Source: Candidatus Methanomethylophilaceae archaeon
Lineage (GTDB): Archaea > Thermoplasmatota > Thermoplasmata > Methanomassiliicoccales > Methanomethylophilaceae
Assembly (NCBI GenBank): GCA_944320495.1
Contig: CALUHR010000005.1
Coordinates: 32,001-96,000 of the forward strand
DNA length: 64,000 nt
Direction: 5' to 3'
Every line of letters starts with the position of its first letter. Position 1 is the stretch's first letter. The position numbers and the translations under genes were made by a program. Of the stretch, positions 43,150-61,156 are shown in pieces. The notes beneath the pieces were generated by a model. The model was not told where the DNA came from, searched no databases, and saw only the letters and a program-made list of their open reading frames with translations.

Positions 43150-43189
43150 TTCTCTCAATCGAAAAGTCCCAGTCACTCTCCCCCGAGGA

Positions 43190-44053
43190 TCAGGATTCGG
43201 CCGGCTGCGACTCGGCAGCGCCCTCCCGCTCCCTGCGCTCCCTAATACGGGCCATGACTGCGGACGGGTTGATCCTCTCGTCCATCGGCAGGGCGTCCCT
43301 GAGGATCACGTGCGGACGGCCCTCGTCGTCGATCACGCGGGATTCGACCCCGTAGACCGTCCTGAGGTTGTCCTCCGTGATGACCTCCCGCGGCGTCCCG
43401 ACGTCGAAGATCTTGCCCTGGAACATCAGGATCACGCTGTCCGCGTACTTCGCCGCGATGTTGATGTCGTGGCTGATCATGATGATCAGGATCCCCTTCT
43501 CGACGGACAGCCGCTTGAGCATCTTCGTGACATCCAGCTGATGCCGGATGTCCAGATTGGAGGTCGGCTCGTCCAGGAGGAGTATCTTCGGCTCCTGCAC
43601 GAGACCCCTGGCCAGCATGACCTTCTGGTGCTGGCCCGCCGAGAGCTCGTTGAACTGGCGCATGGCGAGATGCGAGATCCCGAGCATCTTCAGCGTGTCA
43701 TAAACCACGTCGAGGTCGTTGTCCAGGGACTTCCATTTGGAGTGCGGGTGCCTGCCCATCATCACCGTGTCCACCACGGTGAGCGGGAAGGTGTCGTTGG
43801 CCGAGTACGGCACGTATCCAATCTGCTTGGCCAGCTCCTTGATCGACGTCTCCCTGACGTCCTTGCCGTCGATGAAGACCGAACCGGAGGTTGGCTGCAG
43901 GATCTTGTTGATGCAGTGTATCAGCGTGGACTTGCCCACCCCGTTCGGCCCCAGGATGGAGACGAACGCGGGCCCGTCGATGTCGAGCGAGATGTCGTTG
44001 AGGACGGGCGCGCTGCTGTAGGAGAACTCCACGTTGTCGATTCTGATCTGCAT
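43190..44053 (-). CDS. FecE/BtuD-type ABC ATPase
   Basis: MQIRIDNVEF, GPNGVGKST, LSAGQHQKV, DEPTSNLD, SHDINIA. Confidence 0.9.
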   Translation of the reverse strand: MQIRIDNVEFSYSSAPVLNDISLDIDGPAFVSILGPNGVGKSTLIHCINKILQPTSGSVFIDGKDVRETSIKELAKQIGYVPYSANDTFPLTVVDTVMMGRHPHSKWKSLDNDLDVVYDTLKMLGISHLAMRQFNELSAGQHQKVMLARGLVQEPKILLLDEPTSNLDIRHQLDVTKMLKRLSVEKGILIIMISHDINIAAKYADSVILMFQGKIFDVGTPREVITEDNLRTVYGVESRVIDDEGRPHVILRDALPMDERINPSAVMARIRERREREGAAESQPAES

Positions 44054-44066
44054 GGGACCACTTCGA

Positions 44067-44083
44067 TTGGATGTATATGCCAA
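44067..44083. promoter_or_regulatory. TTGGAT-N5-ATCCAA operator copy (ATPase upstream)
   Basis: TTGGATGTATATGCCAA, the exact reverse complement of the 43133 copy. Confidence 0.65.
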
Positions 44084-44274: not shown

Positions 44275-45135
44275 ATGGGCGACATCATCGTGATAGAGGA
44301 CCTCGTCAAGACGTTCGACGGGAAGACAGCCGTCGACCGTCTGAACCTGAGGATCCGCGAGGGGGAGCTGTTCGGATTCCTCGGTCCGAACGGGGCCGGC
44401 AAGACCACCACCGTCAGGTGCGTGGCGACTCTCACGAACTTCGACTCCGGGACCATAACGGTCGACGGATACGACCTCGTGAAGAATCCGAGGGAGGCGA
44501 AGGAGAGGATGGGCGTCATCCAGCAGCAGGTGTCCCTGGACAAGGACCTTACCATCCGGGAGAACATGATCTCCCATGCGATGTACCACATGATGGGCAG
44601 AGCGGAGAGGGACGAGAAGATCCGGGAGCTCTCCGACTTCTTCGGCCTCGAGGAGTATCTCGACAGACCCGTGGACTCCCTCTCGGGAGGGTGGAAGAAG
44701 CGCGCGGCGATAGTGTGCGCGATGCTCCACAACCCCAAGGTCCTCTTCCTCGACGAGCCCACCTCGGGTCTCGACATCAACGCCCGCAGGCTGCTGTGGG
44801 ACGTGGTCAGGAGGCTGCACGCCGGCGGCACGACGATCGTGCTCACCACCCATTACATCGAGGAGGCCGAGGCTCTCTGCGACAGGGTGGGCATCATCGA
44901 CCACGGGAGGATCATCGCGCTTGACACCCCGCAGAGGCTCTGCGAGAGCGTCGGTTCGGTGGCGGTGGAGTACATGGAGGACGCCAGGACGCGGTATCGC
45001 TACTTCGGGACCCGCGAGGAGGCCAACGCCTTCGCCGCGGGCATCAACACCGGGGTCGACGTCACCATACGCAGGACGAACCTGGAGGACGTGTTCGTGG
45101 AACTCACCGGGAAATCCGTGGGGGGACAGAAATGA
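44275..45135 (+). CDS. ABC-2 type transporter ATPase, paralog of 24136-25044
   Basis: GPNGAGKTT, LSGGWKKR, DEPTSGLD, TTHYIEEAE. Confidence 0.9.
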   Translation: MGDIIVIEDLVKTFDGKTAVDRLNLRIREGELFGFLGPNGAGKTTTVRCVATLTNFDSGTITVDGYDLVKNPREAKERMGVIQQQVSLDKDLTIRENMISHAMYHMMGRAERDEKIRELSDFFGLEEYLDRPVDSLSGGWKKRAAIVCAMLHNPKVLFLDEPTSGLDINARRLLWDVVRRLHAGGTTIVLTTHYIEEAEALCDRVGIIDHGRIIALDTPQRLCESVGSVAVEYMEDARTRYRYFGTREEANAFAAGINTGVDVTIRRTNLEDVFVELTGKSVGGQK

Positions 45136-45905
45136 GTAATCTCCTCAGACAGATCTACTACGTCGCGTGGGGCGACATGATGTTCATGAGACACAACTTC
45201 CTGAACATCCTCATAATGAGCATCATGAGCCCGATACTGTACCTGATAGCGTTCGGGTTCGGGCTCAGGACCGGCACCACCGACATCGGCGTATCGTACG
45301 TGTCGTTCGTCATCCCCGGTATCGTGGCATTGTCATCGCTGAACTCGTCGTTCTCGTCCACATCCACGAGGATGAACGTGCAGAGGCTGTACTATCGGAG
45401 CTTCGACGAGATGATGATGTGCCCGCTGAGCCTCCATGCCATAGTCTGGGGCAAGTGCATGCTCGGACTCGTGCGCGGGCTCATAGCCTGCTTCATACTG
45501 TACGCGCTCGGACTGGGGCTCGGTGCGGCCAGGATCGGCGGGATGGAGCTGGAGCTCACGCCGATGTTCGTCGTGTGCACGGTGCTCTCCTGCATCGTGT
45601 TCTCGTTCCTCGGCATGGCCGCCGCTCTGCTGGCGAAGTCCCATCAGAGCATGGCGACCTTCAACAGCCTGATCATCCTGCCCATGACGTTCCTGTGCGG
45701 GACGTTCTTCTCCGTCTCCGCGCTCCACCCCGTGTTCCAGACAGTCCTGTACTGCCTCCCGCTGACGTACTCGAGCGAGTTGATCAGATCCGCGGCGCTG
45801 CCGGACTTCCTGGAGTTCGACTGGCTGTGCCTGGTGGGACTGATCCTCTGGGGCGTGGCGTTCTACGCGATCGACTACTGGCTGCTGAAGACCAGGAAGG
45901 TCTGA
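45132..45905 (+). CDS. ABC-2 type transporter permease, paralog of 23384-24139
   Basis: FVIPGIVALSSL, YRSFDEMMMCP, ILPMTFLCGTFF. Confidence 0.85.
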   Translation: MSNLLRQIYYVAWGDMMFMRHNFLNILIMSIMSPILYLIAFGFGLRTGTTDIGVSYVSFVIPGIVALSSLNSSFSSTSTRMNVQRLYYRSFDEMMMCPLSLHAIVWGKCMLGLVRGLIACFILYALGLGLGAARIGGMELELTPMFVVCTVLSCIVFSFLGMAAALLAKSHQSMATFNSLIILPMTFLCGTFFSVSALHPVFQTVLYCLPLTYSSELIRSAALPDFLEFDWLCLVGLILWGVAFYAIDYWLLKTRKV

Positions 45906-45976: not shown

Positions 45977-46525
45977 TCGCACCATGTCGGTCCCGACCAG
46001 CGTCACCTCTGTGACCTCGAACCCGTCCCAGCGGTCGCACTGCCTCACGAACCTGTGGACCAGGGAGTCCCCTCCGATGTAGAAGGTGTCCGTCTCCGTG
46101 CAGCCCTCGCGCTCCCTCCACACGGTGTACACGCTGCAGACGGCCTCGCCGTCGAAGGTGTCCAGCATCGCGTAGCCGGCGCTCCTCTCCGAGAGGCGCT
46201 CCAGCGCGTCGTCGGAGAGTATCAGGGAGCCGGGATCGAACCCCTCGAGGGATTCGTCGGATGGCTCCCCGTCTATGTAGATGTCCAAGGTGAAGCGACC
46301 GTCCGGGCGGACATCGGACACCACGCCGCGGACGGTGTGGCTCTCGACTGACGCGTCCCTCCCCTCGACGGTGCGGGTGACCTCCCACTCGATGTAGGAC
46401 CCCTCGGACACCTCGCAGGATGATGGCGCCTCCAGGGCATCGGTGCCGTATACGATGAGGACGGAGGTCGCGACGGCGAGGACGGAGATCATGATCGCGA
46501 CGGCGGCCCTGCTGACGGGGATCAT
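45977..46525 (-). CDS. Membrane-anchored hypothetical protein (182 aa, ends at CGA)
   Basis: ATGA overlap with the NifK-like gene; N-terminal TM, GSYIEWEV; ends LVGTDMV-CGA. In the standard code it would run through the terminator to a TAG at 45875. Confidence 0.7.
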
Positions 46526-47784
46526 GTGTTCCTCACCCCGTGGAGGATCTCGTCGAGGATGTACATGGCACCCCGGAGGCCGTAGACCGGCCTGGGGATG
46601 ATGTCGTCGATGCCCATCGACGAGTACCCGATCGGGATGCCGGCGCGGCATTCGCCCGCGACCTTCATCGTCAGGGCGGTGATCCCCTCGCATAGAACGA
46701 CGCCGGACGGCACGGGCTCCCTGCCCCACGCCTCCGGGAATCCGATCCTCCCTAGGAACGACCCCAGCTCCTCCGATTCGGTCTCGTCGGCGCCGTCGTC
46801 GACTGCTACCGCGGCGGGAGCCATCGCCAGATAGCCGTACAGCCACTCGGTCAGCGGTCTGATCACGGACGCCGTCCCGGCAGCCGAGAATGTGAGCCCG
46901 CGTATGCGGAGGGCGTTGTAGCGCATGCCGATGAACCTGCGGCGGACCTCCCGCCTGCAGGCATCCACCCTGGCGAGGGCCTTCGACGGGTCCCTGCCGG
47001 TCGCCTCCGCGACCGCCCTGACCCACGCCTCCGTCGCATCGAAGCCGACGGGCGCCCCCTTCGGGGAGCGGATGCTCGACACGCCGCGGGATTCGTACCA
47101 CTCCGTCAGCCCGTAGCACATCTCCGGGCAGACGATGACGTTGAACTCGGAGTCGACGGAGCGGACCATCCCCTCTACTGAGGAGCCTGCGCCGGGGCAG
47201 CAGGCGACCTCCAGACCCATGTCCCCCAGAAGGGAGACCAGCTCGTCCCTGGCGGCCATCCAGTCCTTGTCCATCAGCGACATGCCGAGGAGGTTCACAG
47301 TCCCCTCGCGGACGTCCCTCCTCTCCGGGTCCAGGAATTCCATCACATGTGCCAGCGTGCGCCCGCAGGCCCACGTTGCGGGGACCGAGGCCATGGACTC
47401 GGGGATGTGCATGGCCACGTCCTCCAGCCCGTTCTCCCTGATGGCGCGCCAGTGGTCGTCACCGATAAGGCTGGCGCCGGGCGAGTCTATCACCACCGCG
47501 AGCGCCGGATGCCTGAGCGACACCTCGCCGAGGCCCTCCGCGGACTTGTAGTAGGCGCCGTTGATGAAGTCGTACTCGTCGAGATAGGACGACGGCACCC
47601 TAGGATACCCGTAGTAGTACGGCGCAGAGAAGGACTCCTCGCCGTCCCTCGGAAGCACCGCCGAGGACACCACGGTGTGGCGTATCCTGCAGCCTCCCGG
47701 CCCGTGCAGGAACACCGCCGCATCGGATATCCCTTCGACAGCCATGATCGAACCCGTGAGCCCGTCGGGCAGCTGCCTCATCAT
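46522..47784 (-). CDS. Nitrogenase component-1-like oxidoreductase subunit (NifK/BchZ-like, single conserved Cys)
   Basis: [45 protein letters not shown]. Confidence 0.75.
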   Translation of the reverse strand: MMRQLPDGLTGSIMAVEGISDAAVFLHGPGGCRIRHTVVSSAVLPRDGEESFSAPYYYGYPRVPSSYLDEYDFINGAYYKSAEGLGEVSLRHPALAVVIDSPGASLIGDDHWRAIRENGLEDVAMHIPESMASVPATWACGRTLAHVMEFLDPERRDVREGTVNLLGMSLMDKDWMAARDELVSLLGDMGLEVACCPGAGSSVEGMVRSVDSEFNVIVCPEMCYGLTEWYESRGVSSIRSPKGAPVGFDATEAWVRAVAEATGRDPSKALARVDACRREVRRRFIGMRYNALRIRGLTFSAAGTASVIRPLTEWLYGYLAMAPAAVAVDDGADETESEELGSFLGRIGFPEAWGREPVPSGVVLCEGITALTMKVAGECRAGIPIGYSSMGIDDIIPRPVYGLRGAMYILDEILHGVRNT

Positions 47785-49910
47785 GGCATCCTCCATCCCT
47801 CGACCGCCGGGAGGCGGGAGGTGTTCTCCAGATACCGGATGTAGTCGAACACGGGGCGGTAGCCCACGCCCATCCTGCTGAGCTTGGCGAACGTGGTGCC
47901 CTCCGGAACGGGTCTGGCTATGTCTCCGATGAGGTAGTCTGGCCTCATATCGTGAAGATCCCTCGCGAGGTCCTCCTCCGTGTAGTCCTCTGTGACCTTG
48001 TACCTCGAATCCGCCCTGCCTCCGGCCTTGCGGGGGCTCGGCGCGACCCCGACCCTGAGGATGTCGACGCCCAGATTGTCCAGAGCGTCTATGAGCCAGT
48101 CGGGGTTGGAGCCGATCTTCCAGGCCACGATGACGCGCTTCCCCTCCATCTTCGGGCGGTGCGATTCCAGGAACGCTTCGTACTCCGCTCTGGCACGTTC
48201 GGTTTCTTTCAAGGCCATCTCCTCCCTGCCGGTCCGGCGCCCCATCTCGGACACCCAGTCCAGGTACCCGCGCATGCCCATGGGCATCGGCGCCGGGAAC
48301 GGCTCCCTGCCAGTCCTCTCCGTTATTAGCGACATCGTGCGCCTCGCGGCCCGGGTGTCGCTCATCAGCATGTCGAACTCCGCGCGGCACACCTCCTCAG
48401 GGGGAGCCGGCGAGCCGTCGTCGATGAACCTGCAGTTCACCTTCAATCCGAAGGATGCCAGCATCCTGTCCAGCTCCCGGCGGTGGTCGGGGGACTGTAT
48501 GTCGAAGAACGAGTTGGAAACCAGGTTCACCAGGCCCCTCTCCGGCTCCAGCGAAGGGTCGATGCGGTCCGCGATGGCCTCGGCGGCCATCTCGAAGCCG
48601 TCGTTGTACTCGCCGGCGATGTCTCCGTCCGCAGATACGAGATCTATGCGAACGTCGGGATGTGCCAGACGCGCCGATTGGACGACGGACTGGCAGTCGT
48701 CGCCGATGATCCCGGGCATGCAGGTGGTGACCACGGCCACCTTGCGGTAGCCCTCGGATATCGCGTTCTCCAGGGACCATCTCAGGAACCCGTCGCCGCC
48801 GAATATGGCGGCGGAGTCGTCCATCATCGACGAGCGTATGTCGCAGGTCGGGGGACGGGAGTACAGACCCTGCTCGTAGAGTCCGAGCACGGCCTTGGCG
48901 CGGGTGGTGGCCATGAGGTACGAGCAGGACATGGGGCCGTGGACCACCACGGCCGTGTCACCGAGCCTGGAGAAAGCGGCCACGGCGCCGTAGGCGGCGC
49001 AGGAGCTCATGACCCTGGCATCCTTGATCGATGATCTGCGGCAGGCGCCGCATCCGGTTCGTTGGGGCAGATTACCCGATGAAGGGCGTATCTCCCTGCC
49101 GGCCGCCAGGTCGGAGAGCTGGTCGTCGTCCAGGGGGTGCGGGAAGGACATCACATCCTCGCCGTCGGATGCGACGGCGATGCGGTCCGCAATCCCGCGG
49201 ACCTGGTCCGCTATCGCGCTGTCCGGGTAGAGTTCCATGACCGTGTGGCCCTTCGATTCGGCGTCGGCAAAGAGGCGATCCCTCGGAATGACGGCGATGA
49301 CCTCGGTGCCGGTGGCGCGGGCGAACCTCTCCACGGTCTCCCTCTCCCCCTCCACCCCGCGGCAGTTGAGCACGATGCCCAGCAGTCTGGGCCTCCCGTT
49401 GTCGAAGTTCAGCAGGCCGCGCATGATGTTGTTGGCCGCGTACATCGCCATGAACTCACCGGATGTCACCAGTATGACGGCGTCAGCGTACTCGTTCCTC
49501 AGCGGGACGGCGAACCCTCCGCACACGACGTCCCCGAGGACGTCGTAGATCCTAACGTCCGTGTCGACGGAGTCGGCGCCGAGCCTCTTCAGAGTGTCGA
49601 AGGTTGTGAGGATCCCACGGCCGGCGCATCCTATGCCCGGCTCGGGGCCGCCGGCCTCGGTGCAGAGCACCCCAGCGGTGCCCTCCTCGATCACATCCTC
49701 GAGCCTCCTCCGGCCGATCGGCGTGTCCCTCACGTAGTCGAGGACGGTGCGCTGGGCCCTCCCTCCCAGGAGGAGGCGGGTGGAGTCGTGCTTCGGGTCG
49801 CAGCCGACCTGCATGACCCTCATACCCCTCTCCGCCAGGGCCACGGAGATGTTGGCGGACATCGTCGACTTCCCGATGCCGCCCTTGCCGTACACCGCCA
49901 CTTGGAACAT
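47781..49910 (-). CDS. NifH-like reductase fused to a NifD/E-like component-1 domain
   Basis: [43 protein letters not shown]; then SSCAAYGA, HGPMSC, TTCMPGIIGDD. Confidence 0.88.
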   Translation of the reverse strand: MFQVAVYGKGGIGKSTMSANISVALAERGMRVMQVGCDPKHDSTRLLLGGRAQRTVLDYVRDTPIGRRRLEDVIEEGTAGVLCTEAGGPEPGIGCAGRGILTTFDTLKRLGADSVDTDVRIYDVLGDVVCGGFAVPLRNEYADAVILVTSGEFMAMYAANNIMRGLLNFDNGRPRLLGIVLNCRGVEGERETVERFARATGTEVIAVIPRDRLFADAESKGHTVMELYPDSAIADQVRGIADRIAVASDGEDVMSFPHPLDDDQLSDLAAGREIRPSSGNLPQRTGCGACRRSSIKDARVMSSCAAYGAVAAFSRLGDTAVVVHGPMSCSYLMATTRAKAVLGLYEQGLYSRPPTCDIRSSMMDDSAAIFGGDGFLRWSLENAISEGYRKVAVVTTCMPGIIGDDCQSVVQSARLAHPDVRIDLVSADGDIAGEYNDGFEMAAEAIADRIDPSLEPERGLVNLVSNSFFDIQSPDHRRELDRMLASFGLKVNCRFIDDGSPAPPEEVCRAEFDMLMSDTRAARRTMSLITERTGREPFPAPMPMGMRGYLDWVSEMGRRTGREEMALKETERARAEYEAFLESHRPKMEGKRVIVAWKIGSNPDWLIDALDNLGVDILRVGVAPSPRKAGGRADSRYKVTEDYTEEDLARDLHDMRPDYLIGDIARPVPEGTTFAKLSRMGVGYRPVFDYIRYLENTSRLPAVEGWRMP

Positions 49911-49918
49911 ACATCCAG
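49902..49918. promoter_or_regulatory. TTGGAT-N5-ATCCAA operator copy overlapping the start codon of the NifH-fusion gene
   Basis: TTGGAACATACATCCAG. Confidence 0.55.
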
Positions 49919-50016
49919 GAATAACGGACGGGATGATAACATGTTCGACGGACCGTGCCACCCTTCATGTACGTCCTCGGGATTCCCCTCGCAACATCAC
50001 GGAGAATGTGAGGGAC

Positions 50017-50733
50017 ATGGGAATCAACATCGGCATCATGGAGATGGAGGCGCCCAGCGCGCCGTGCAGGGCGCTCCGCTCGGAGACCGTCAGGGTGCAC
50101 ATGGCGGACGTGTCCGGATTCGAGGACGCGGCGGTCTACGACGAGTTCGTGCCGTACGAGAAGGCGAGGGCGGCGCTCCCGGACTGGGAGGCGTTCGTGA
50201 AGAGGAACAGGCTCAACGAGGACGCCGATGCCGTCTATCTGGAGAAGATCAAGAAGGAGGACGACCTGGAGATGCTCCGCCCCCTCGCCGAGAGGAGATG
50301 CACCGGATGGGTCGTCATGGAGAGGGTTCCGGAGGACCGCAGGGAGGAGGCGAGACAGCGCGCCGACGATGCGGTGACCGGATGGGACTGCCTGGACTTC
50401 GACGAGATGAATGCGATGTGCGGGTCCTGCCCCCTGTCCTGGGACAAGGGCCGCGGCTGCATCGGGGCCTTCGGCCCGGACAACAGCCTGCTGCCGGAGA
50501 TCGCCGGCAGGCACGGATGCCCTATCGTCGCTTCGGTGCCCCAGGCTGTGGCCGAGGGCAAGAGATTCACGTCGGGGGACGCGGACGAGCTTCTGCGCGA
50601 GGTCGCGGTGCTGAGGGAGGCGCTGCCCGTCGAGGGGAAGATGATGGTCCGCCGCTATTCCGGGCCGGTGGACAGGATGGAGGCCGTGGCGAAGATCTCG
50701 AAATCGGAGGGCTGCGGCTTCTATTTCTTCTGA
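50017..50733 (+). CDS. Conserved-looking hypothetical protein with a Cys cluster
   Basis: MGINIGIMEMEAPSAPC..., WDCLDFDEMNAMCGSCPLSWDKGRGCIG; strongly coding codon usage. Confidence 0.75.
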   Translation: MGINIGIMEMEAPSAPCRALRSETVRVHMADVSGFEDAAVYDEFVPYEKARAALPDWEAFVKRNRLNEDADAVYLEKIKKEDDLEMLRPLAERRCTGWVVMERVPEDRREEARQRADDAVTGWDCLDFDEMNAMCGSCPLSWDKGRGCIGAFGPDNSLLPEIAGRHGCPIVASVPQAVAEGKRFTSGDADELLREVAVLREALPVEGKMMVRRYSGPVDRMEAVAKISKSEGCGFYFF

Positions 50734-51097
50734 ACCTTCTTACTCAGGGGGCCTCCAGGCTCCCGTCTATCATTGACCGACGGGCAACCGATGCCCGTCC
50801 GTCCAATCCCTGACCCGCGTGGTCAACCGATTGCCGTCGGGGTTGCGAAGCGGTATATCCCGTCCAGCTTTCTCGAGGCCCATGACCTGTCCCTTCTGCC
50901 ACTGCGAGGTTTCGGATCTATGCCCCTTCTCCATCTGCCCCACCTGCGGGCAGCCGATAGAGGACAGGCAGGCATGATTGTCTCGGTATTTGGGGCAATG
51001 TTCTCCTTATCCCTGGTCGGTCCTCCATAGATTCACACCATGTGAAGTTAAGACCATTGATGGCATTCATACTTGCAAGTGCAACGAGATTGCACGC

Positions 51098-51108
51098 GGG
51101 GGGGGGGG
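51098..51108 (+). repeat. G11 homopolymer in the leader of a surface-protein gene
   Basis: tgcacgc-GGGGGGGGGGG-ccgccc, 47 bp upstream of the ATG at 51156. Confidence 0.8.
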
Positions 51109-51155
51109 CCGCCCGTTATTGGTCGTCCCTCCCGTCTTCCGTACGGAGGGAAATC

Positions 51156-53741
51156 ATGAACAATCTGACCAAGATGGCTGCAGTCATTGCTGTCATCGTC
51201 GCCGTATTCGGATGCACGGCCATAGCATCTGACAACTCAGAAGCCGCATCTACGATCTATGTCGATACGAATGCGACTGATGATCAGACGACGAATACAT
51301 ACTCCACCCTAGCAGGTGCGATTGCAGCAGCAACAGATGGCGATATAATCACGCTGAAAAGCGACATTACGAACTGTCCCAAGATAGAGCTTGACAACGG
51401 AAAAGAATTCACCATAGACCTGAACAGTTTTGATATAACGTTCGCCCAAAATGCCTACTTCCATGTGGTGAACGCATCCCTGGTAATCACCGGAAACGGT
51501 ACAGTGAAGGAGGGGTCCCCCTATTACGGCCCATTCCTCATCAACACTCCGATAGATGCCGTTAAAGGACAGGAATATGTCTCCCTTACCGTCGGTGAGA
51601 ACGTCACAGTCGAGGGTTGGGCCCCAATTTTTATCGATTTCAACGACGAATCTGTGGTGAAAAACGCCTACGGAGTAACCATCGACGTCTACGGCACGCT
51701 CAACAGCGTCAACGATTACACCGGAGCCGCCGGACATGGTATCTATCTGAACGGAACCATAACAGCCACCGACGACTATGCCACCATCAACGTACATGAG
51801 GGCGCCACCATCACATCCAATGGGAACGGCGCCTACATTGCAGGATACGCCGCCCTCAACGTGTACGGCGGAAACATCTCTGGAGACACGGGAATCGAAA
51901 TCCGCGCCGGCATCCTGAACATCAAAGGCGGCACCATCACCGCAACCGGAACCGAATTCAACTCCGCACCGAACGGTAACGGCTCCACTACCAGTGGAGT
52001 GGCCATCGTCGTCTCCCAGCACACCACGGACCTGCCCATCGATGTCAGCATCTCTGGCGGCTCCATGAGCGGGCTCTACGCCCTCTATCAGGCAACCACC
52101 GACGCTGGCAACAAACCCGAACTGATCAAGATCGACATCAAGGGCGGAAACTTCTCCACAACCGACACCACCGGCGAATACGGGTCCGTCTGGGCCGAGG
52201 ACTCCAGGAACTTCGTCTCCGGCGGCTCGTACAACACCGATCCCTCCGCCTATCTCGCCGATGAGCTCGTAGCCGTCCAATACGCCGATTCCGGCATGTT
52301 CCTGATCCAGAACCAAGATGCATTCTTCTCCGTGGACATCGTCTCCGATACGGAGAATCCGTTCATGGGCGAAGAGGTGAACCTCACGGCAGTGGTTACC
52401 GGCGCCCCCTCCGGCGCCGACCTGACATACAAGTGGTACGTGGACGAGAAGGCCGTCGAAGGCAATGGAAACACAATCACCGTGAACGCTGGTAGAGTAA
52501 CGTACAATGTGGAGGTATACGCCGACGGCGTGTACCTGGGCCAGACCTATGCGGAGCCGTTCACGTTCATGCTCAGGATCGACTACACCCTGGATGGGGC
52601 CCTCATCGATTCCCAGACGGTCCTCCAGGGCAGTCTACCGGAGCTCCCCGACCTTCCGGAGCTCCCGACCGGATACGAATACCAGGTGGATGGAATCCCC
52701 GTGATCGATTGGACGCCGTTCGAGCTGTATGAGGATTGGACGGTTCCTATAACCACGGGAATCGCCGATGTGTCCATCTCGGTCACGGCAGGGATCGATT
52801 CGGCAGGCAACCCCATGCTCACCGCGAGCGTCAGCGCGCCTGTGAACTACGTGGACGGCCTCTGCATATGGTCATTGGATAATGAGGAAGTCGAAGCCAC
52901 GGGATGGACCATGCCCCTGACTGTTTCCGGATGGTATTATGTGGCTGCTTACGTCGAAGACGCCGACGGACATTTCGGATTCGACTACATGGCATTCTAT
53001 TTCGAGGTTCCCGATGACGGGGAGACGGACATAAGCGGTTCCGGAGGGGTCGTGAACACCTCCACGGCGACCAACACGGCTATAATCACGACTGGAACCG
53101 GAGCCAATGATGCCACTCTGAACCTGGCCTACACCGATGAGAACGACAACAAGGTCGCGGACATCGCCATAACAGGAAACGTGGGGCAGGGGGTCGCGGC
53201 GGTCACCGTCAATCCCATGGGAAGCAACACGGCTAAAAATGCCGTCTCCAACGTCGTCTCCGAGGAGCAGGCGTCCAAGGCGGTCGGAGTGGATGTCAAG
53301 GTCAGCAACGTCACTGACTACCGCATGACCATCAAGGTCCCGATGACCCTCGACGAGGGACAGTACGCCGGCTCCGCCGTGGCCTACTTCATCGAGGAGG
53401 ACGGGTCTCTGACCCCGGTGGACTGCATCGTCAGGGGCACCGAGGTGTGGATCTACACCACCCACAACACCGAGTACGTCGCGGTGCCGACGTCCATCGT
53501 CTCCGCCCCTGTGGAGCAGGAGGAGCCGGTGTTCGAGGATGATGATTCTGGCTCAGACCTGCCTCCGTTCATCCCGTTCCCGCCGCAGGACGACGGGGAC
53601 CCGATCGAGGTCTACCCGAGCCAGGACGGCGGATCCTCCAGCGGCAGGGACGACACCATGAAGGTCGTCGCCGTCGCGGCGGCAGCCGTGATCGCCGCGA
53701 TCCTTGCGATCATCCTCGCGTCCACATACCGCAAGAACTGA
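51156..53741 (+). CDS. Adhesin-like surface protein with N-terminal signal and C-terminal TM anchor
   Basis: MNNLTKMAAVIAVIVAVFGC..., YSTLAGAIAAATDGDIITL (pectin-lyase-like start), GTGIEIRAG beta-helix text, IYTTHNTEY, C-terminal VVAVAAAAVIAAILAIILASTYRKN. Confidence 0.85.
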   Translation: MNNLTKMAAVIAVIVAVFGCTAIASDNSEAASTIYVDTNATDDQTTNTYSTLAGAIAAATDGDIITLKSDITNCPKIELDNGKEFTIDLNSFDITFAQNAYFHVVNASLVITGNGTVKEGSPYYGPFLINTPIDAVKGQEYVSLTVGENVTVEGWAPIFIDFNDESVVKNAYGVTIDVYGTLNSVNDYTGAAGHGIYLNGTITATDDYATINVHEGATITSNGNGAYIAGYAALNVYGGNISGDTGIEIRAGILNIKGGTITATGTEFNSAPNGNGSTTSGVAIVVSQHTTDLPIDVSISGGSMSGLYALYQATTDAGNKPELIKIDIKGGNFSTTDTTGEYGSVWAEDSRNFVSGGSYNTDPSAYLADELVAVQYADSGMFLIQNQDAFFSVDIVSDTENPFMGEEVNLTAVVTGAPSGADLTYKWYVDEKAVEGNGNTITVNAGRVTYNVEVYADGVYLGQTYAEPFTFMLRIDYTLDGALIDSQTVLQGSLPELPDLPELPTGYEYQVDGIPVIDWTPFELYEDWTVPITTGIADVSISVTAGIDSAGNPMLTASVSAPVNYVDGLCIWSLDNEEVEATGWTMPLTVSGWYYVAAYVEDADGHFGFDYMAFYFEVPDDGETDISGSGGVVNTSTATNTAIITTGTGANDATLNLAYTDENDNKVADIAITGNVGQGVAAVTVNPMGSNTAKNAVSNVVSEEQASKAVGVDVKVSNVTDYRMTIKVPMTLDEGQYAGSAVAYFIEEDGSLTPVDCIVRGTEVWIYTTHNTEYVAVPTSIVSAPVEQEEPVFEDDDSGSDLPPFIPFPPQDDGDPIEVYPSQDGGSSSGRDDTMKVVAVAAAAVIAAILAIILASTYRKN

Positions 53742-53748
53742 TTGAAAC

Positions 53749-53790
53749 GAGGTCCTTCGACCTCCCCTTACCGCCCTCTCACGGGGGCGG
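53749..53790 (+). terminator. Tandem hairpins after the adhesin gene
   Basis: GAGGTC-CTTC-GACCTC and CCGCCC-TCTCACGG-GGGCGG. Confidence 0.5.
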
Positions 53791-54138
53791 ATACCTCGCC
53801 CCGATGAATCCGGGTTCACCCCTTTGACGGACTTCCTCCCGCAGGGGGTGATGCGCATCCCGATGTCGTCATCGTAATCCGTCATGCCCATATTGGTCAG
53901 AAAGCGGACGCCCTCCACGGGCTCCGGTTCCCCGCGATATCTAAGAGATCCCTCCCCTCGTAGGGGAGGATCGTCATCTGGAAGGCGGCCGGACTGCGGG
54001 ATTCTGCCAGTCCACTCCGCTTCGATTCCCGGGAGATGCCATGTCCTCTCGCCTCGGGTTCGACGTCCATATTCATGGAGCCGTCGTGTATGCGATGACG
54101 ATTTCAAATAGCCCATCGGCCATCCGCCATCGATATCC

Positions 54139-54570
54139 GTGCACCACGACCCCTCCGATCTCCTCGCCGCCGTATCCGAGGCCTGCGGACGCACGCCGGA
54201 CATCTCCTCGATGGAGGGCCGCCTGACCCTGCAGAGGGGATGCTACATCCTCAACTCCAGGGGATGCGGGCCGTTCTACGACTACGACGTCTACATCCGC
54301 GGGCCCTACTCGAGGGAGCTGGCCGACGACATATGGGGGCTGGGGGCAGTCCCCTCCGGGGGCACGGGGCTTCCGGAGGCGGAGGTCTCCGTGCTCATGG
54401 GGCTGTTCCGCAGGGGGCCGTCGTACGTGGAGGCGTATGCGACGACGCTCCTGCTGGTCCGGATGAACCCGGGGGTCGCGAGGCATAAGATCGCGGAGAG
54501 GGCGACGGAGCTGAAGCCTGATCTGGAAAGGGAGGTCCGGGAGGCTTTCGACGAGATTCTGGAACAGTGA
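54139..54570 (+). CDS. YwgA-like/Panacea-like small protein
   Basis: [11 protein letters not shown]...[17 protein letters not shown] resembles the QK-x-x-Y...GPYS signature; GTG start is uncertain. Confidence 0.55.
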
Positions 54571-54613
54571 ATCCCTGTGGATTTTCGCAACGGTTCTAAT
54601 CGCCACCCAGATA

Positions 54614-54630
54614 TTGGATTATACATCCAA
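54614..54630. promoter_or_regulatory. TTGGAT-N5-ATCCAA operator, perfect copy (second NifH-fusion operon)
   Basis: TTGGATTATACATCCAA, 13 bp before the ATG at 54644. Confidence 0.8.
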
Positions 54631-54643
54631 TAGGTGTTCTCCC

Positions 54644-56770
54644 ATGACCAAGGTGGCGATCTACGGCAAAGGCGGGATAGGCAAATCCACGACGGCGTCC
54701 AACATCTCGCTGGCCCTCTCGCGGAAGGGGGCAAGGGTGCTCCAGGTGGGCTGCGACCCCAAGAGCGACTCCACCCGCTCCCTCCTCGGAGGCCGCCCGC
54801 CGGCCACCGTCCTCGGCTACGTCAGAGGAACGCCTCCGCTGGAGAGGAAGCTGGAGGATGTCGTGATGCCGGGAACCAACGGCGTCATGTGCGTCGAGGC
54901 CGGAGGGCCGGAGCCCGGCATAGGATGCGCCGGGCGCGGAATCATCACCACATTCGAGACCCTCTGGAGCCTCGGCATCGACGACCTCGACGCGGACGTC
55001 ACGGTCTTCGACGTCCTCGGCGACGTGGTCTGCGGAGGGTTCGCCGTCCCCCTCCGCAGGGAGAACGCCGACGCCGTGTTCATCGTGACCTCGGGGGAAT
55101 TCATGTCGGTGTACGCGGCGAACAACATCATGAGGGGAATCGTCAACTTCGGGACCGACCGCGGGAGGGTCGCCGGCATCATCCTCAACCGCAGGGGGGT
55201 GGAGGGCGAGGACCGCATCGTCAGGACCCTGTCGGAATGCACCGGGATCCCGATTGTCGCCGATGTGCCCAGATCGGAGCTGTTCAGACGGGCCGAATCC
55301 GGAGCAATGACTGTATCGGAGATGTTCCCGGACTCGCTGGAGGCCTCGATCTACTCGAAGATGGCGGATATGATACTCGGCATCGCGGATGGGACCACGA
55401 GGCTGTACGTCCCGCATCCGCTGGACGACGCCCAGCTCGAAGCCCTGGCCTCCGGCCGCGCCGACATGGGGCCGGGCCGTTTCGCCAGCCGCCGCCCCTG
55501 CTCCGAGAGGGGTTATGTGGGCATCGGCTCCTGCGCCTCCCGCGGGGCTGTCTTCGAAGCCGGGAGGGTCTGCGACATCCCGATCGTGGTCCACGGACCG
55601 GACAGCTGCGGTTACGTCATGTCCCACACCCAGGACGGACACTACCTGGAGGCCCTGGCGTCGAACAGGTTCCTGCGGGCCCATATGCGCAACAACATCT
55701 CCTGCACCGGGATGACCGAGCGGGACTGCATCTTCGGCGGACGGAAGCCGCTGAAGAGGGAGCTGCTCCGCCTCGCATCGGAGGGGCGCCGCACCGCCAT
55801 GGTGGTCACAACCTGCGTCTCCGGTATGATCGGGGACGACGTGGACTCCGTCGTGAGGGAGGTGGAGATGGAGATCCCGGGGATGCGTGTCATCCCGGTG
55901 AAGGCTGACGGGAACCTCACCGGGGAGAGCGAGGAGGGGCGCCTGATGGTCATCGGGGAGTTCATGAACATGATAGAGCCTCATGAGGGGCCAAAAAGGA
56001 ACAGAATCAACATCGTGGACGACACGTTCATGTGGTTCGATTCGGGGAACAACCTGCTGTGGACCGAGAAGCTGCTGAGGATGGTGGGCTCCGAGCCCGG
56101 CGTCCGCCTGTTCGACGACTGCACCCTGGAGGAGCTCCGCTCCTCCGCATCCAGCATCCTTTCGGTACTGGCGGACGATTCGCCAGTGAACGTTCGCATG
56201 GCGAAGATGCTGGAGGCGAAGGGCATGGACGCCCTGCCGGCCCCGCTCCCGCGCGGGTACGGAGAGACCATGGCGTGGATCCCCATGTGCTGCGAGCGTC
56301 TCGGGACCGACCCCGGGCCGGCCCTCGCCAGGGCGGAGTCCGAATACCAGAGCGCGCTGAGAAGGCTCTCGCCGAGACTGTCAGGCAGGAGGGTGGCCGT
56401 CGTGTCGCGTTCGTCCTCCGATCCGGACTGGATGATCGAATGCCTGCAGGACGCGGGCGCGGACGTTGTGTGCTCCGTGTCGTTCCGTGTGGGCGCGGGA
56501 TCCGTGAGGGGGATGCGCTCCAGGTTCGCGGACCACGTCGAATGTAGGAGCGACGTGCCGGTATCGGAACTCGAGATGTTCCTGCTGGACAGGTCCCCGG
56601 ACATCGTGGTCGGACCGGGCAACCTGCTTTCCAATCTGGGAATCAGACACATATCGCCTCCCTCGGAGACGGTGTCGCACAGGGCGTCTGAGGCGTTCCT
56701 TGAGAGGGTGGCGGACGGGCTTGTCCGCAAACCCTCTCCGGGATGGATATCGTGGGGGGAGGAGGCATGA
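54644..56770 (+). CDS. Second NifH-like/NifD-like fusion protein
   Basis: [43 protein letters not shown]; [25 protein letters not shown]. Confidence 0.88.
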
Positions 56771-58008
56771 ACCCGAAGCCCGACGGATTCATCGGAGCGG
56801 TGATGGCCGCGGAGGGGGTCTCCAACATGACCACCCTGCTCCACGGGCCGGACGGATGCAGGAAGAACCTTGCCGCGCTGTCCCGCAGCCTGCTCCCGAA
56901 GGGCGGGAGATGCGACCTCAGCACCCCGTTCTATAGGGGATTCCCGGTGGTCCCGTGCACTGGCATCGGACCGTCCGACTACATCTTCGGTTCCGGAGGG
57001 AGGCTGACCGAGGCGCTCGGGTTCGTGGGCGGAAGGACGGAGGGTCCGGTGGCCGTCGTGTGCTCCCCCGGAGCGTCCCTCATCGGGGACGACTGCTCCA
57101 AGGCGATCGCGGACAGCGGGATGGAGGGCAGGGCCGTCGTCATCGGCGAGGACACGATGTCCAGTCCGCTCTGCGAGGCATACGACGCAGCGATAGAAAG
57201 AATCCTCAGATCGCTTGCGCCCCGGGATGGCGAGACGATCCCGGGGACCGTGAGCCTCGTCGGCCTGAGCGTGCTGACCAAGGACTGGCACACCGTGACC
57301 TCCGAGTTCTCAGCCATGTTCGGCATGATGGGACTCGATGTGCTGGCATCGCCCGGGGCCGGTAGCCCCTCGGAAGACCTGCGCCGGTCGGCTCAGGCCG
57401 AGTTCTGCGTGATCATGTGCCCCGAATACGCTCGTCTCACGTCATCATTCTACAAAGAGCGCGGATCGGAGATTGTTTCGCTGGGCCACGCGCCGGTCGG
57501 CTTCGCGGCGACCAGGGAGCTGATCCTCAAAGTGGCCGACGCCTCCGGCAGAGACCGGTCGGCGGCGCTGGAGTACATCAGGGGATTCGAGAGACGCGCC
57601 CGCACATGCATGCTCACCACACAGGAGAACGTGTCCGGAAGGACCTTCAGGCTGGAGGCCGACGCATCGGTCGCGCTCCCCCTGACCAGATGGCTATGCG
57701 ACGACCTTGGCCTGGTCCCGGCGTCCGTAATCTGCCAGACAGGCCTCAGGGCGGCGGACGAGCTGATCGGATATCTTGATGGGATGGGGCTGGGCGACGT
57801 CTTCGGCGTCCCGCCTCGGTCCGAACCGTATTACGCGTTCTGCGACGGGAACACCGCCCGCCTGGAGGAGCTGTCCGGGGTCTGCCGCAGGGGCGTGGAT
57901 ATCGTGTTCCCGTCGAAGCTCAACACGGACTTCCGCCCGTCGCCTGTGATGGGGCCGTCCGGGGCGATGTACCTGCTGGACCGCGTGGTCAATCCGTTCC
58001 CGAACCGA
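56767..58008 (+). CDS. Second NifK/BchZ-like component-1 subunit (ends at CGA CGA)
   Basis: [45 protein letters not shown]; CGA at 58006 matches the end point of the paralog. Confidence 0.75.
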
Positions 58009-58792
58009 CGACCTGGAGGCCGTCCTCGGGATTGTCCATCAGCATGATGTGGGGACGGCCCTCGAACGTGACGATCTCGCATCCGATTCCGTACACGTCG
58101 CGGATGTTGGCCTCGGTGAGGACCTCCTCTGGCGTACCGTCGGAATGGACCGTCCCCTCGCTCAGAAGGATTATCCTGTCGGAGTAGCGGGAGGCGATGT
58201 TCAGGTCGTGGCATATCATCAGCACTATCATCCCCCTGCTGTGGGCCAGGTCCCTGAGGAGATGCGCCACCCCCATCTGGTGCCTGATGTCCAGATTGGC
58301 CGTCGGCTCGTCGAGCAGGAGTATCCTCGACTCCTGGGCCAGCCCGCGGGCGAGCATCACCTTCTGATGCTGTCCGGCCGAGAGCTCGTTGAAGGAACGC
58401 AGTGCCAGATCATCTATCGACATGAGACAGAGGGTGGAATGTACGATGCGCAGGTCCTCCTCCGTGCGGCGGTTGCCGCTGTGCGGATACCTGCCCATCA
58501 TAACCGTGTCGGCTACGGACATGGGAAACGACGTTCCGGATGAGCACGGCACGTAGCCCATGATCTTCGCCAGCTCACGGCCGGGTATCTCGGAAACGTC
58601 CCTCCCGTCGACCCTGACGGATCCCGATCTAGGCGTCAGGATGCGGTCGATGCAGTGTATTAGCGTGGACTTCCCCACGCCGTTGGGTCCGAGGACAGAC
58701 ACGAACTGAGGGGATTCCACCGAGAACGTCACATCCCTCAGAACATCCGCGTCGCCGTATCCGAACGTGATGCCTTCTACTTCCAATCTCAT
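57989..58792 (-). CDS. FecE/BtuD-type ABC ATPase
   Basis: GPNGVGKST, LSAGQHQKV, DEPTANLD, CHDLNIA. Confidence 0.9.
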   Translation of the reverse strand: MRLEVEGITFGYGDADVLRDVTFSVESPQFVSVLGPNGVGKSTLIHCIDRILTPRSGSVRVDGRDVSEIPGRELAKIMGYVPCSSGTSFPMSVADTVMMGRYPHSGNRRTEEDLRIVHSTLCLMSIDDLALRSFNELSAGQHQKVMLARGLAQESRILLLDEPTANLDIRHQMGVAHLLRDLAHSRGMIVLMICHDLNIASRYSDRIILLSEGTVHSDGTPEEVLTEANIRDVYGIGCEIVTFEGRPHIMLMDNPEDGLQVVGSGTD

Positions 58793-58802
58793 GATATCTC
58801 CC

Positions 58803-59867
58803 TCGGTTCCAGACCTTCCTGTGCTGGGTCACGAGTATGTAGATGAACAGAGGACCGCCGATTATGGACGTGATCACTCCCACGGGCAGACCCGTGGCGG
58901 TTATCTCCACGGCGAGGCAGTCCGCGGCGGCGAGGACGAACGCCCCGCACGCCGCCGAGGCGGGGAGCAGATACCTGTTGTCCGAATCGATGAAGATCCT
59001 CATCACATGGGGTGCGACCAGTCCGACGAACCCGATCGTGCCTGTGAAGCAGACCAGGGTGGCAGTGACCAGAGACACCACGGCTATGGTCACCAGGCGG
59101 ACCGTCTTGGGCCTTATGCCGGAGGATACGGCCAGGTTCTCGTCGCAGGAGAGGATGTTCAGCCTGGCGCTGAGCATGGACAGGAGGGCCACCCCCGCCA
59201 GGGTGGCGCATATCAGGTACGGCAGGGTGTCCCAGGAGACGCTCCCCAGGGTCCCCAGGCCCCACATGTAAACGGAGGCGAAGGTCTCCGAGGAGGCCGC
59301 CAGATTCAGCATGGTGGTAAACGACGAGAACACATACATCACGGCGATGCCCACCAGTATCATCGTGGTGGGATTGGAGCTGCTTCTGAATCCGGATGCG
59401 AGCATGATAACCGCCGCCGGGATGAGGGACAGCACGAACGCGTTGCCTATGGACCCCATGCTCCCGGTAAGGAACGGCAATATCACCACGCCGGCCACCG
59501 ACGCGAGGGCGATACCGAAGTTGGCCCCAGACGATATGCCGGTCATGTACGGGTCGGCCAGGGGATTGCGCAGAGCGCTCTGCATGGCGGCGCCGCAGAT
59601 CCCCAGCCCGGCACCGACGAAGAATACCGCCAGCCCCCGGGGAGCGTTCTTCTCCCAGACCACATACTCATCTGTGGCATTGTCTATCGGGACACCCGTC
59701 AGATGGTCGAAGAACACGCGATACGCCTCGCCGAAGCCTATTTCGTAGGGCCCCAGGGCGATCTCCAGCAACGCCGCGACGGCCGCCAGCACGAGCATGA
59801 TGGCGATCACCAGCCTCTTGCGGCGGATACGCCTGCGGTACGACTCCTCGAAACCCTCGAAGCTCAT
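58803..59867 (-). CDS. FecCD/BtuC-type ABC permease (ends at CGA)
   Basis: NPLADPYMTGISSGA, GTIGFVGLVAPH, LPVGVI; ends QHRKVWN-CGA, 10 bp before the ATPase ATG. Confidence 0.85.
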
Positions 59868-61156
59868 CGCTGCCACGCCTCCCTGCGCGTACGCATGACC
59901 AGGAGCAGGAACAGCGGAGCGCCGATGAATGAGAGGACCACGCCGACCGGCATCGTACTCGTGGCCAGGATCCGGCTCAGCACGTCGGCGAGCAGGATCA
60001 GCACCACCCCGAGCATCGCCGAGGCGGGTATCACCAGGCGGGTGTCACTGCCGAGTATGAGGCGCACCATGTGCGGGGCTATCAGACCCAGGAACCCGAT
60101 CATCCCCACGAAGCTGACGATGGATGCTGTCACGAACGATACGATTATGAGGCAGATCATGCGGAAGTTGTCGACGTTCAGGCCCAGGGCCTTGGCGTCA
60201 TTGTCGCCCATCATCAGCAGATTCAGCCTGCCGGACATAGCGTAGAGGGCGACGCACCCGACCAGCGTCACCGTGAACATCATCGGCAGGTACGACCAGG
60301 ACGCCCCGCTCAGAGAGCCCACCTGCCACTCATAGGCCTCCTGCATGGCGTCGTCGTCTGCCACCATCATTATGAGCGTGCTGAACGCCGAGAAGATGTA
60401 CGACACGGCCGTCCCGACCAGGATAATCGTGGCTGGGGACCCGCTGCTGATTCTGGAGACGAATATCATCACGCCCGCGGGAATCAGGCTGAAGAGGAAG
60501 GCGTTCAGCACCAGACCGTACTGCCCGATCCCGACCACGGCGAGACCGAGCACGATCGCTATGTTCGCACCCAGCACCGCCCCGGACGATATGCCGGTGG
60601 TGTACGGGTCGGCCAGGGGATTCTTGAGGACACTCTGCATAACGGCTCCTCCCACGGCCAGCCCCGCCCCGGCGACCATGGCCACGAGGGTCTTCGGGAG
60701 CTGGGAGTTCCAGATCAGGATGTCGTGGAACCAGTCGTCCGACCCGGTCTCGTATACTACCCCGCGGACATGCCCGATGACGAGACCGAACGCCTCCGAC
60801 ACGGACAGACCGCTTATGCCGGCGGTAAGCGAGTATCCCGCCAGGACCACAGCGACCGCAGCCAGGGCGGCGATGAACACCGCCTTCACGGTGTTGCCGG
60901 CGCGGTAGTTCCTGACGAACTGATCCTCGGTCCCGCTCTCTGTGAAGGAACGGATGTATCTAGACACCACCCCGGTCCTGTCCGCGTACACGATGCACGC
61001 GAGCACGATGGCGACGAGGGACACGACCGACGCGGTGGCGCATGCCAACACGACGTCGTCGGCCCCGGACTTGGCTAGGGCGGCGACGGCCAGAGCCCCC
61101 GCTGTCCCGATGACGACCACGGAGGCCACCGCGTTCTGGACTGAGCGGGGGTTCAT
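59867..61156 (-). CDS. FecCD/BtuC-type ABC permease with an extra N-terminal hydrophobic region (ends CGA then TGA)
   Basis: NPLADPYTTGISSGA, GMIGFLGLIAPH; ends REAWQ-CGA-TGA, with the CGA overlapping the next ATG. Confidence 0.85.

Follow-up and report, generated by a model that had tools for sequence, protein, structure and literature searches.

Two operons for nitrogenase-like reductases with H and D modules in one frame in a methanogen locus with a conserved in-frame CGA and a putative cobalt/nickel-tetrapyrrole operator

We analysed a stretch of 64,000 nucleotides (hereafter the window; contig C5, positions 32001-96000) from the 1.77-Mb, 63% G+C genome of a Candidatus Methanomethylophilaceae archaeon. 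It holds two operons, each encoding a protein with a NifH-like (H) and a NifD-like (D) module (HD1 and HD2) and a NifK-like partner (K1 and K2; Table 1). Judged by sequence, the two copies are paralogues within a branch of the nitrogenase-like (NFL) reductases that is uncharacterised and found mostly in Methanomassiliicoccales. On balance, we think it somewhat probable that they are ATP-driven [4Fe-4S] reductases of a tetrapyrrole tied to the cobalt or nickel economy of the cell, with a leaky stop codon at the H-D junction of copy 1.

The gene family itself has been noticed before. Borrel et al. 2014 listed a ‘fused nifH/nifE’ of Methanomassiliicoccales (PMC4153887), and a 2024 survey reported a high-confidence NifH-NifD/E fusion (cluster 443; PMC11237513), in neither case with a function, a partner, a gene context, a ligand analysis or an in-frame CGA or TAG in the linker. 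New here are the conserved synteny, the common operator, and the invariant in-frame linker CGA, replaced by TAG in two relatives. A 2026 NFL review regards the uncharacterised NFL clades as the chief problem left in the field and says nothing of this H-D form; the words ‘fused’, ‘fusion’ and ‘Methanomassiliicoccus’ are not in its text (PMC13474568). A 2025 paper on the heme de-chelatase HmuS leaves the role of many archaeal CobN/HmuS homologues unexplained (PMC12583661). The locus described here joins these two questions.

Module architecture and cluster ligands

Pfam matches and the translations put the NifH and component-1 motifs of both fusions where the initial annotation had seen them. 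Fer4_NifH (PF00142) matches HD1 with 301 bits and HD2 with 286 bits; Oxidored_nitro (PF00148) matches the same proteins with 179 and 159 bits, and the K proteins with 117 and 99 bits. Both H modules carry DVVCGGF, both D parts carry xSCAxxGA, HGPxSC and TTCxxGxIGDD, and both K proteins carry HGPxGC, so that, as in the NFL superfamily at large, a NifH-type P-loop ATPase with two cluster cysteines is combined with NifD/K-type component 1 subunits. In each operon the ATG of the K gene overlaps the TGA of the HD gene (ATGA) behind a Shine-Dalgarno sequence (GGAGG for K1, GGAGGAGG for K2), which couples the translation of K to that of HD. We take the two copies to be old paralogues, with sequence identities of 62% between the H modules, 31% between the D modules and 38% between K1 and K2.

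The putative cluster ligands were followed through alignments of 69-76 relatives from species-representative genomes. These loci are kin, and counts over them overstate independence. The P-loop and Cys95/Cys130 of the H module are invariant in 69 sequences, as are Cys27, Cys52 and Cys120 of D and the HGPxGC cysteine of K across the aligned relatives; none of these relatives has lost a ligand cysteine, an event that the initial annotation had said would speak against its proposal. The other two of the three canonical P-cluster cysteines of K are lost, with SPG in place of SCP at the third position. The earlier claim that K keeps only the HGPxGC cysteine thus holds for the canonical positions, but a second cysteine elsewhere in K is nearly invariant (67/69). 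Two further features vary among the relatives: a cysteine of D within VNCRF is kept in 71/76 and a CxxC motif in the H-D linker in 54-58/76, and HD2 has neither. At the position of NifD Cys275 there is a serine in HD1 and no cysteine in HD2, and the alignment contains no conserved histidine equivalent to NifD His442 in the C-terminal part of D. The absence of FeMo-cofactor ligand motifs, noted at the outset, is thereby borne out. Such an arrangement would suit a single inter-subunit [4Fe-4S] cluster bound by three cysteines from D and one from K, without a cofactor of the FeMo-co or L-cluster type.

A 3+1 pattern (C27/C52/C120 of D and the HGPxGC cysteine of K as presumed ligands of the presumed cluster) is that of the group V tetrapyrrole reductases COR (BchXYZ) and DPOR (BchLNB/ChlLNB), which also share the ATP-dependent Fe-protein, the D/K-type heteromer, the lack of FeMo-co ligands and a tetrapyrrole gene context. 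The initial annotation had drawn this comparison. The pattern is real and invariant, but D lies nearer to NifE, NifD and MarD than to BchN or BchY, and the resemblance to DPOR and COR therefore appears to be one of ligand pattern and not of kinship, to go by sequence and model comparisons. Moreover, H is nearer to CfbC and NifH than to BchL and BchX, H is in frame with D, and the host is a non-phototrophic archaeon.

This placement rests on curated model scores, on sequence matches to the PDB and on fold matches. No part of HD1, HD2, K1 or K2 reached an NCBIfam curated cut-off. The H modules of copies 1 and 2 score 326 and 308 bits on the CfbC model (cut-off 402), 316 and 296 bits on NifH (394.35), 188-194 bits on BchL (345.15) and 183-184 bits on BchX (331.2). 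For the D modules the values are 67 and 66 bits on NifE (505), 51 and 55 bits on NifD (653.55), 26.6 and 27.8 bits on CfbD (TIGR03282; 268.4), and 23 and 19.5 bits on BchN (NF002768; 324). The K proteins reach 42-45 bits on BchB (490.35) and 36-37 bits on NifK (K2 37; 427.3). Solved NifE, NifD, MarD and BchB chains match the D part with E-values of only 1e-16 to 1e-8. An AlphaFold model of D (predicted local distance difference test, pLDDT, 88) is closest to VnfD, NifD, NifE and MarD (template-modelling score 0.62-0.70), and BchN is not among its top 50 fold matches. Outside the family, the nearest proteins are other unnamed NFL D-type proteins and NifEN.

With best sequence and fold matches that include NifE and NifD, one may ask whether the operons encode cryptic nitrogenases or NifEN-like cofactor-maturation scaffolds. 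We give this next to no credence. The scores amount to 51-68 bits against cut-offs of 486-654, K is without two of the three P-cluster cysteines, no cysteine occupies the Cys275 position, and nifB, nifE and nifN were absent from the window open reading frames (ORFs) scanned, as the initial annotation had stated. What is shared with NifEN, NifDK and MarDK (groups I-III and IV-C) is the nearest structures, an alpha/beta-type heteromer and coupled genes. By contrast, NifHDK, VnfHDGK and AnfHDGK have six P-cluster cysteines, the Cys275/His442 ligands and the curated scores; MarHDK (IV-C) has P-cluster ligands, a Cys270/His429 pair for mar2 and MarB/NifB (PMC13474568), whereas here ligands are missing and the window ORFs scanned contain no radical-SAM (radical S-adenosylmethionine) gene; and IsrHDK (IV-F), with one cysteine in D and three in K (PMC11423573), shows the reverse of the present pattern. 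Features in common with group VI NflHDK of Elusimicrobia are at most four of the six P-cluster cysteines, no FeMo-co ligands and no NifB (bioRxiv 10.1101/765248; PMC13474568), an unassigned function and a proposed tetrapyrrole-related context. As described, however, that group is bacterial, with separate H, D and K genes and radical-SAM neighbours, whereas HD/K comes from archaea, with H and D sharing a reading frame and FecCD, ABC-2 and CobN genes around them.

The organism is a methanogen, and its H modules score best on CfbC and are 49-52% identical to its own cfbC-like protein, the only stand-alone H protein encoded in the genome. The operons could on these grounds supply spare or alternative F430 enzymes (CfbCD isoenzymes), and CfbCD would also share a simple [4Fe-4S] cluster and a tetrapyrrole substrate. 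We consider this very improbable. H stays below the CfbC cut-off and D far below that of CfbD, with which it aligns across ~130 residues only; a true cfbD (398.6 bits) lies with the cfbC-like gene on another contig (C9), beside corrin genes. CfbD forms homomers and has no K partner (PMC11423573), and CfbC and CfbD come from separate genes, whereas K follows D in nearly all loci here (see below). Finally, the family was found in only part of the sampled genomes of the order (68/151), though all methanogens need F430. The statement in the initial annotation that these proteins are unlike CfbC and CfbD stands.

An in-frame CGA at the H-D junction

Both genes had been described as NifH-NifD fusions. 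HD2 is indeed uninterrupted, but HD1 forms one frame only if a CGA in its linker (Table 1) is read as sense. By its codon statistics, CGA behaves as a stop throughout this genome. Across 19 window genes, every CGA lies in a leader or at the end of a gene, save codon 284 of HD1. In a genome-wide test over 913 coding-like ORFs, mid-ORF CGA is nearly absent (7-10 per decile, versus 65-137 for CGG and CGT), CGA ends about a fifth of the ORFs (~185/913), and the G+C content at third codon positions (GC3) drops from 0.88 to 0.61 past the first late CGA, while control codons stay at 0.78-0.86. K1 orthologues end on the same final residue, followed by TGA in most loci and by CGA in two (L023 and L045). 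A literature search brought up no publication in which CGA serves as a stop codon in Methanomassiliicoccales. Examples of gene ends at CGA in the window lie at 58006-58011, 45977-45979 and ~58803-58805.

The linker CGA stands apart from these terminal codons. In a set of 44 copy-1-type loci, the window included (43-100% identity), it is invariant (44/44), nearly always three codons before the CxxC, and the H, D and K alignments contain no other CGA, save an adjacent second one in one locus (L043). The codons that flank it vary synonymously, CxxC is kept in 42/44 spacers, and no frameshift or standard stop separates the CGA from the D part in any of the 44. The next base differs as well: terminal CGAs are followed by T in 104/166 cases (63%) and by A in 10/166, linker CGAs by A in 25/44 and by T in 5/44 (Fisher p 5e-13, though the loci are kin). 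Two further relatives (L053, 6808 region; L057, 10001 region) have an in-frame TAG in the H-D linker; TAG is the pyrrolysine codon in this order. The linker CGA is also present in the four HD2-type orthologues and missing from HD2 of the window. In-frame TAG codons occur in addition in homologues at G106:C1:1531306-1532553 and G061:C1:1373464-1374699.

The simplest reading of this pattern is that the H-D junction of copy 1 is a leaky stop kept by selection, from which both a free H and an H-D fusion would arise; copy 1 probably yields both products. As a rare internal CGA, the linker codon offers a concrete protein in which to test how CGA is read.

If CGA were a full stop at the linker too, copy 1 would not be fused at all: H would end at codon 283, D would start at a conserved ATG (codon 301), and the published ‘fusion’ would be an artefact of reading CGA as arginine. 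The frequency of CGA at gene ends fits this account, as does its replacement of TGA at the K1 stop of two relatives. So does a methionine three residues before the first cluster cysteine, present in 44/44 loci and absent from lineages without the CGA, and D-only database entries exist (P0126, for example, starts MYSC). We nevertheless judge a split gene distinctly unlikely. Over the 13-20 codons from CGA to ATG the frame is kept without a standard stop in 44/44, with synonymous changes; this spacer keeps the CxxC and a SIKDTR-like motif, which also occurs in the true fusions of Methanoplasma. No conserved Shine-Dalgarno sequence precedes the ATG at codon 301, and A, which most often follows the linker CGA, is the base least often found after terminal CGAs.

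Opposite objections bear on the leaky stop as well. The genome contains a tRNA-Arg(UCG) gene (aragorn; 413317-413390), and the linker CGA may consequently be read as arginine at full efficiency. In this sole tRNA-Arg(UCG), the anticodon stem is mismatched (A·A) at its loop-proximal pair and so has only 4 bp, which might render CGA decoding weak, not absent. Lineages that use CGA normally have a glycine at the linker position, and neither their fusions nor HD2 has a linker stop, which shows that a free H is not universally needed.

We return to the leaky stop as the basis of a possible mechanism. An H2 dimer with a bridging [4Fe-4S] cluster would dock at the D/K interface, as the biochemistry of NifH, DPOR, COR and CfbCD suggests (PMC13474568), and ATP hydrolysis would drive single electrons through the 3Cys+1Cys [4Fe-4S] cluster to a substrate held between D and K. 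The free H from copy 1 would serve as the second H of the dimer on each D/K half. The working enzyme would then be an (H + H-D + K)2 assembly, with one of the two H subunits in every dimer tied covalently to the core. More speculatively, partial termination at CGA may set H:HD near 1:1, each tethered H thereby meeting a free partner, and the linker CxxC and o238, a cysteine-rich protein encoded next to HD1, may carry further metal sites or deliver electrons. That the recoded junction (CGA, or TAG in two relatives), under selection and tuned by its sequence context, sets the ratio of free to tethered Fe-protein in such a complex, working on a cobalt or nickel tetrapyrrole, is a tentative idea that we hold to be possible but not probable. 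If true, this would be the first case in nature of a nitrogenase-type enzyme whose tethered reductase has its stoichiometry set by recoding, in an undescribed pathway.

Gene neighbourhood, operator and candidate substrate

The closest protein matches of the window bear the names Methanomethylophilaceae or Methanomassiliicoccales. A search with the D part returned 594 clusters (50% identity) at E<=1e-3, mostly of ~700 aa with the match starting near residue 300. Among GTDB species representatives, 449 loci were confirmed with a 6-sequence alignment as query, and the best 80 were examined; nearly all of these belong to Methanomassiliicoccales, followed by Methanosarcina. A homologue was found in 68/151 sampled genomes of the order (50/63 in the same family), at 1-5 copies each, and HD2-type orthologues (39-44% identity) in only four other genomes among the 151. 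Ten bearers of the cluster have bacterial labels (L010, L011, L012, L017, L026, L035, L036, L042, L047 and L078), from ‘cleanbin’ metagenome-assembled genomes named as Lachnospiraceae, Ruminococcus, Bifidobacteriaceae, Bacteroides, Dialister or Prevotella; most are 50-68% identical to HD1 at the protein level, and they are probably mis-binned archaeal contigs.

The initial annotation had proposed a gene-neighbourhood comparison, which we carried out by tblastn of the window proteins against the best 80 loci. In 78/80 the K gene immediately follows D. One order recurs: a divergent o238, then HD-K, a convergent pair of ABC-2 permease and ATPase, a FecCD-type importer made up of an ATPase, a binding protein and two permeases, and CobN. 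The ABC-2 transporter keeps its convergent position in most related loci, ChlI/ChlD appear in some, and the synteny with FecCD importers and CobN is kept over dozens of Methanomassiliicoccales species. CobN is closest to true cobaltochelatase (7c6o, 678 bits), ahead of ChlH (506) and HmuS (388).

Many of these genes also share an operator-like sequence. A 17-bp palindrome, TTGGAT-N5-ATCCAA with a TATA-like centre, has five exact copies in the 1.77 Mb, three of them in the window, compared with 0-1 copies in shuffled sequence. Sites with one or two mismatches accompany HD1, importer 1, the chlI/cobN gap and the cbiMN operon (Table 1), and another with one mismatch precedes a sirC-like gene adjoining hemB. 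The related loci (1.15 Mb) contain 76 sites: 27 are placed ~60 nt ahead of the H module, 15 accompany the binding-protein gene, 14 the ABC-2 ATPase and 4 CobN. We propose that the palindrome is the probable repressor operator of a cobalt/nickel-tetrapyrrole regulon. On this phylogenetic footprint, one repressor probably controls the whole set, including the CbiMNQO transporter (for cobalt or nickel) and early tetrapyrrole synthesis. CbiM-type transporters carry cobalt or nickel. As a CobN-like protein of Methanothermobacter is, in addition, made under nickel limitation only (PMC12350162), the metal of the regulon could be either.

A Na+/H+ exchanger gene likewise has an exact copy of the palindrome in front of it, and an exact copy also separates a PLD-like gene from a zinc-ribbon gene; sites outside the window are at C3:46081, C3:178660 and C9:84741. 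The ORF directly behind the exact copy at 32104 (32127-32546, +) encodes an acidic protein of 140 aa without a Pfam family, which may be a member of the regulon or its regulator.

The suggestion in the initial annotation that the enzymes reduce an imported tetrapyrrole or metal chelate gains support from the FecCD/CobN synteny over dozens of species and from the common operator. Guided by these two lines, we picture the substrate as a (metallo)tetrapyrrole whose import or metal exchange the neighbouring genes would carry out, and which would be handled together with the FecCD importer, the ABC-2 transporter and the CobN/ChlID chelatase; the most likely chemistry would be reduction of a ring C=C bond or of the metal centre. 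The genes hemB, cobA, cbiJ, cbiD and cbiC are all in the genome, the organism makes its own corrin ring, and simple salvage of a precursor is therefore unlikely. The two copies may differ in substrate, as the initial annotation suggested. Two specific ideas were dropped, namely that the NFL enzyme stands in for a missing Co-precorrin-6A reductase (cbiJ, cbiD and cbiC are present) and that tetrapyrrole precursors must be imported (hemB and cobA are present).

The hmu system with HmuS (PMC12583661) offers another comparison, since it also places a CobN-family protein of a gut anaerobe beside genes for metal-tetrapyrrole uptake. However, the window CobN resembles true CobN more than HmuS, hmuY and hmuR are missing, and hmu has no NFL enzyme. 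Heme-iron harvesting of this kind is possible; it lost ground with the CobN scores and with the operator found also before cbiMN.

Several points weigh against a tetrapyrrole reductase. The D part appears, in sequence and model, nearer to NifE, NifD and MarD than to BchN or BchY. Mar and Isr, the characterised enzymes of group IV, have small molecules and not tetrapyrroles as substrates and cleave their C-S bonds, and FecCD importers also carry siderophores and nickel complexes. With a corrin pathway of its own, the organism has no obvious need for such an enzyme. The distant Methanosarcina homologues show none of the neighbours in the tblastn comparison with window proteins, and each of the two operator sites ahead of cbiMN and of the sirC-like gene carries a mismatch and is seen in this genome only.

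These points feed a different account, in which an imported metallophore or small organic compound is reduced or cleaved (at C-S, C-N or C-O) or made to release its metal, and CobN is a mere neighbour in a metal-homeostasis island. The fold and sequence of D and the range of FecCD cargo would suit it, and, given the CobN-like protein that Methanothermobacter makes only under nickel limitation, the island could be a regulon for acquiring nickel or cobalt. Nonetheless, we think it rather unlikely. Mar and most group IV enzymes have P-cluster ligands together with a Cys/His pair for an L-like cluster and a NifB homologue (PMC13474568), whereas we find 3+1 cysteines and a serine at the Cys275 position. 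The window ORFs scanned include no radical-SAM/NifB or NifEN gene, and the known partners of CobN-type proteins are tetrapyrroles.

A tetrapyrrole reductase remains our preferred reading. More broadly, the locus defines a conserved, probably co-regulated set (importer, chelatase, two predicted ATP-driven reductases, exporter and cysteine-rich protein) in abundant gut methanogens, and it provides a list of candidates for the metabolism of cobalt, nickel and tetrapyrroles, on which methane formation is based through corrinoid methyltransferases and F430.

Layout of the locus and minor observations

Table 1. Features of the locus and operator sites.
Feature	Position	Strand	Description
HD1	47781-49910	-	NifH-like and NifD-like modules in one frame (Pfam, translation, codon view, conservation)
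HD1, NifH-like module	codons 1-~270	-	
HD1, linker	codons ~271-300	-	CxxC at codons 287/290; NifD-like module follows
HD1, linker CGA	49059-49061	-	Codon 284, in frame; sole CGA within HD1
HD1, cysteines of NifD-like module	codons 304, 329, 397; 493	-	Presumed cluster ligands; family cysteine (493)
K1	46522-47784	-	NifK-like partner; one canonical cysteine, in HGPGGC
g3	45977-46525	-	182 aa; hydrophobic N-terminal stretch; includes terminal CGA 45977-45979
o238	50017-50733	+	238-aa cysteine-rich protein, divergent from HD1
HD2	54644-56770	+	Uninterrupted NifH-NifD-like fusion; no CGA
K2	56767-58008	+	NifK-like partner; next standard stop 58045-58047
FecCD-type ABC importer 1	39529-44083	-	Two permeases, binding-protein-like gene, ATPase (Pfam)
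FecCD-type ABC importer 2	57989-62450	-	ATPase, two FecCD permeases, membrane-anchored binding protein (Pfam); gene ends at CGA
ABC-2 type transporter	44275-45905	+	ATPase and permease, convergent with operon 1
Class I chelatase genes	32678-39505	-/+	ChlD-like and ChlI-like (-), CobN (+)
cbiMN-cbiQ-cbiO-cbiO	14669-18923	-	Energy-coupling factor (ECF) metal transporter
Operator, exact	54614-54630		TTGGATTATACATCCAA; 13 nt upstream of HD2 ATG
Operator, exact	62517-62533		Upstream of binding-protein gene of importer 2
Operator, exact	32104-32120		Ahead of ORF 32127-32546 (+)
Operator-like, 2 mismatches	49902-49918		Overlaps HD1 start codon; same place in L009
Operator-like, 2 mismatches	43133-43149		Importer 1
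Operator, 1 mismatch	35594 and 35747		Both sides of chlI/cobN gap
Operator, 1 mismatch	18907-18923		Before cbiMN-cbiQ-cbiO

The operons were first described as two divergent ones. They do point apart, but 4.7 kb and three genes (o238, an 899-aa surface-protein-like ORF and orf143, of 143 aa) lie between them. Position 45977, where that description began, belongs to g3, a third small gene coupled to K1: its ATG overlaps the K1 stop (ATGA), its coding part covers 45980-46525, and it ends at CGA, with a GC3 of 0.92 ahead of this codon and of 0.64 beyond. Among related loci, g3 has a counterpart only in the closest relative (L009). K2 probably ends at a tandem CGA CGA (58006-58011), and CobN probably starts at 35765.

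The six invariant cysteines of o238 are C17, C135, C138, C148, C168 and C233 (CxxC-x9-C and others). The protein has no Pfam family and no named Atlas cluster; Foldseek with its confident model (pLDDT 92.8) yielded no hit at E<=0.001, and VIA reached a Z of 6.0 at best, under that tool's stated noise range. An earlier, longer version, ‘orf328’, was discarded because its first 90 codons are an antisense shadow of the NifH P-loop region; the true start is at 50017. Likewise, orf227 (39704-40387, +) seemed conserved and proved to be the antisense shadow of the second FecCD permease gene. No relatives of orf899, orf143 or orf440 came up by tblastn in related loci, and these ORFs were not counted in the system.

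Large Thr/Gly/Asn-rich, surface-protein-like ORFs lie at 51042-53741 (+) and 62680-63999 (+), without a Pfam family or relatives among the related loci; the leader of the first contains an 11-G tract (~51097-51107). In both importer binding proteins (41726-43105 and 61197-62450, -), a membrane anchor at the N-terminus precedes an Asp-rich repeat of dockerin/EF-hand-like character with weak Dockerin_1 matches, which is unusual among Peripla_BP_2-type proteins. Divergent from cbiMN, across the one-mismatch operator at 18907, lies a pair formed by a HcyBio gene (homocysteine biosynthesis, 497 bits) and a NIL-ferredoxin gene (19298-20864, +).

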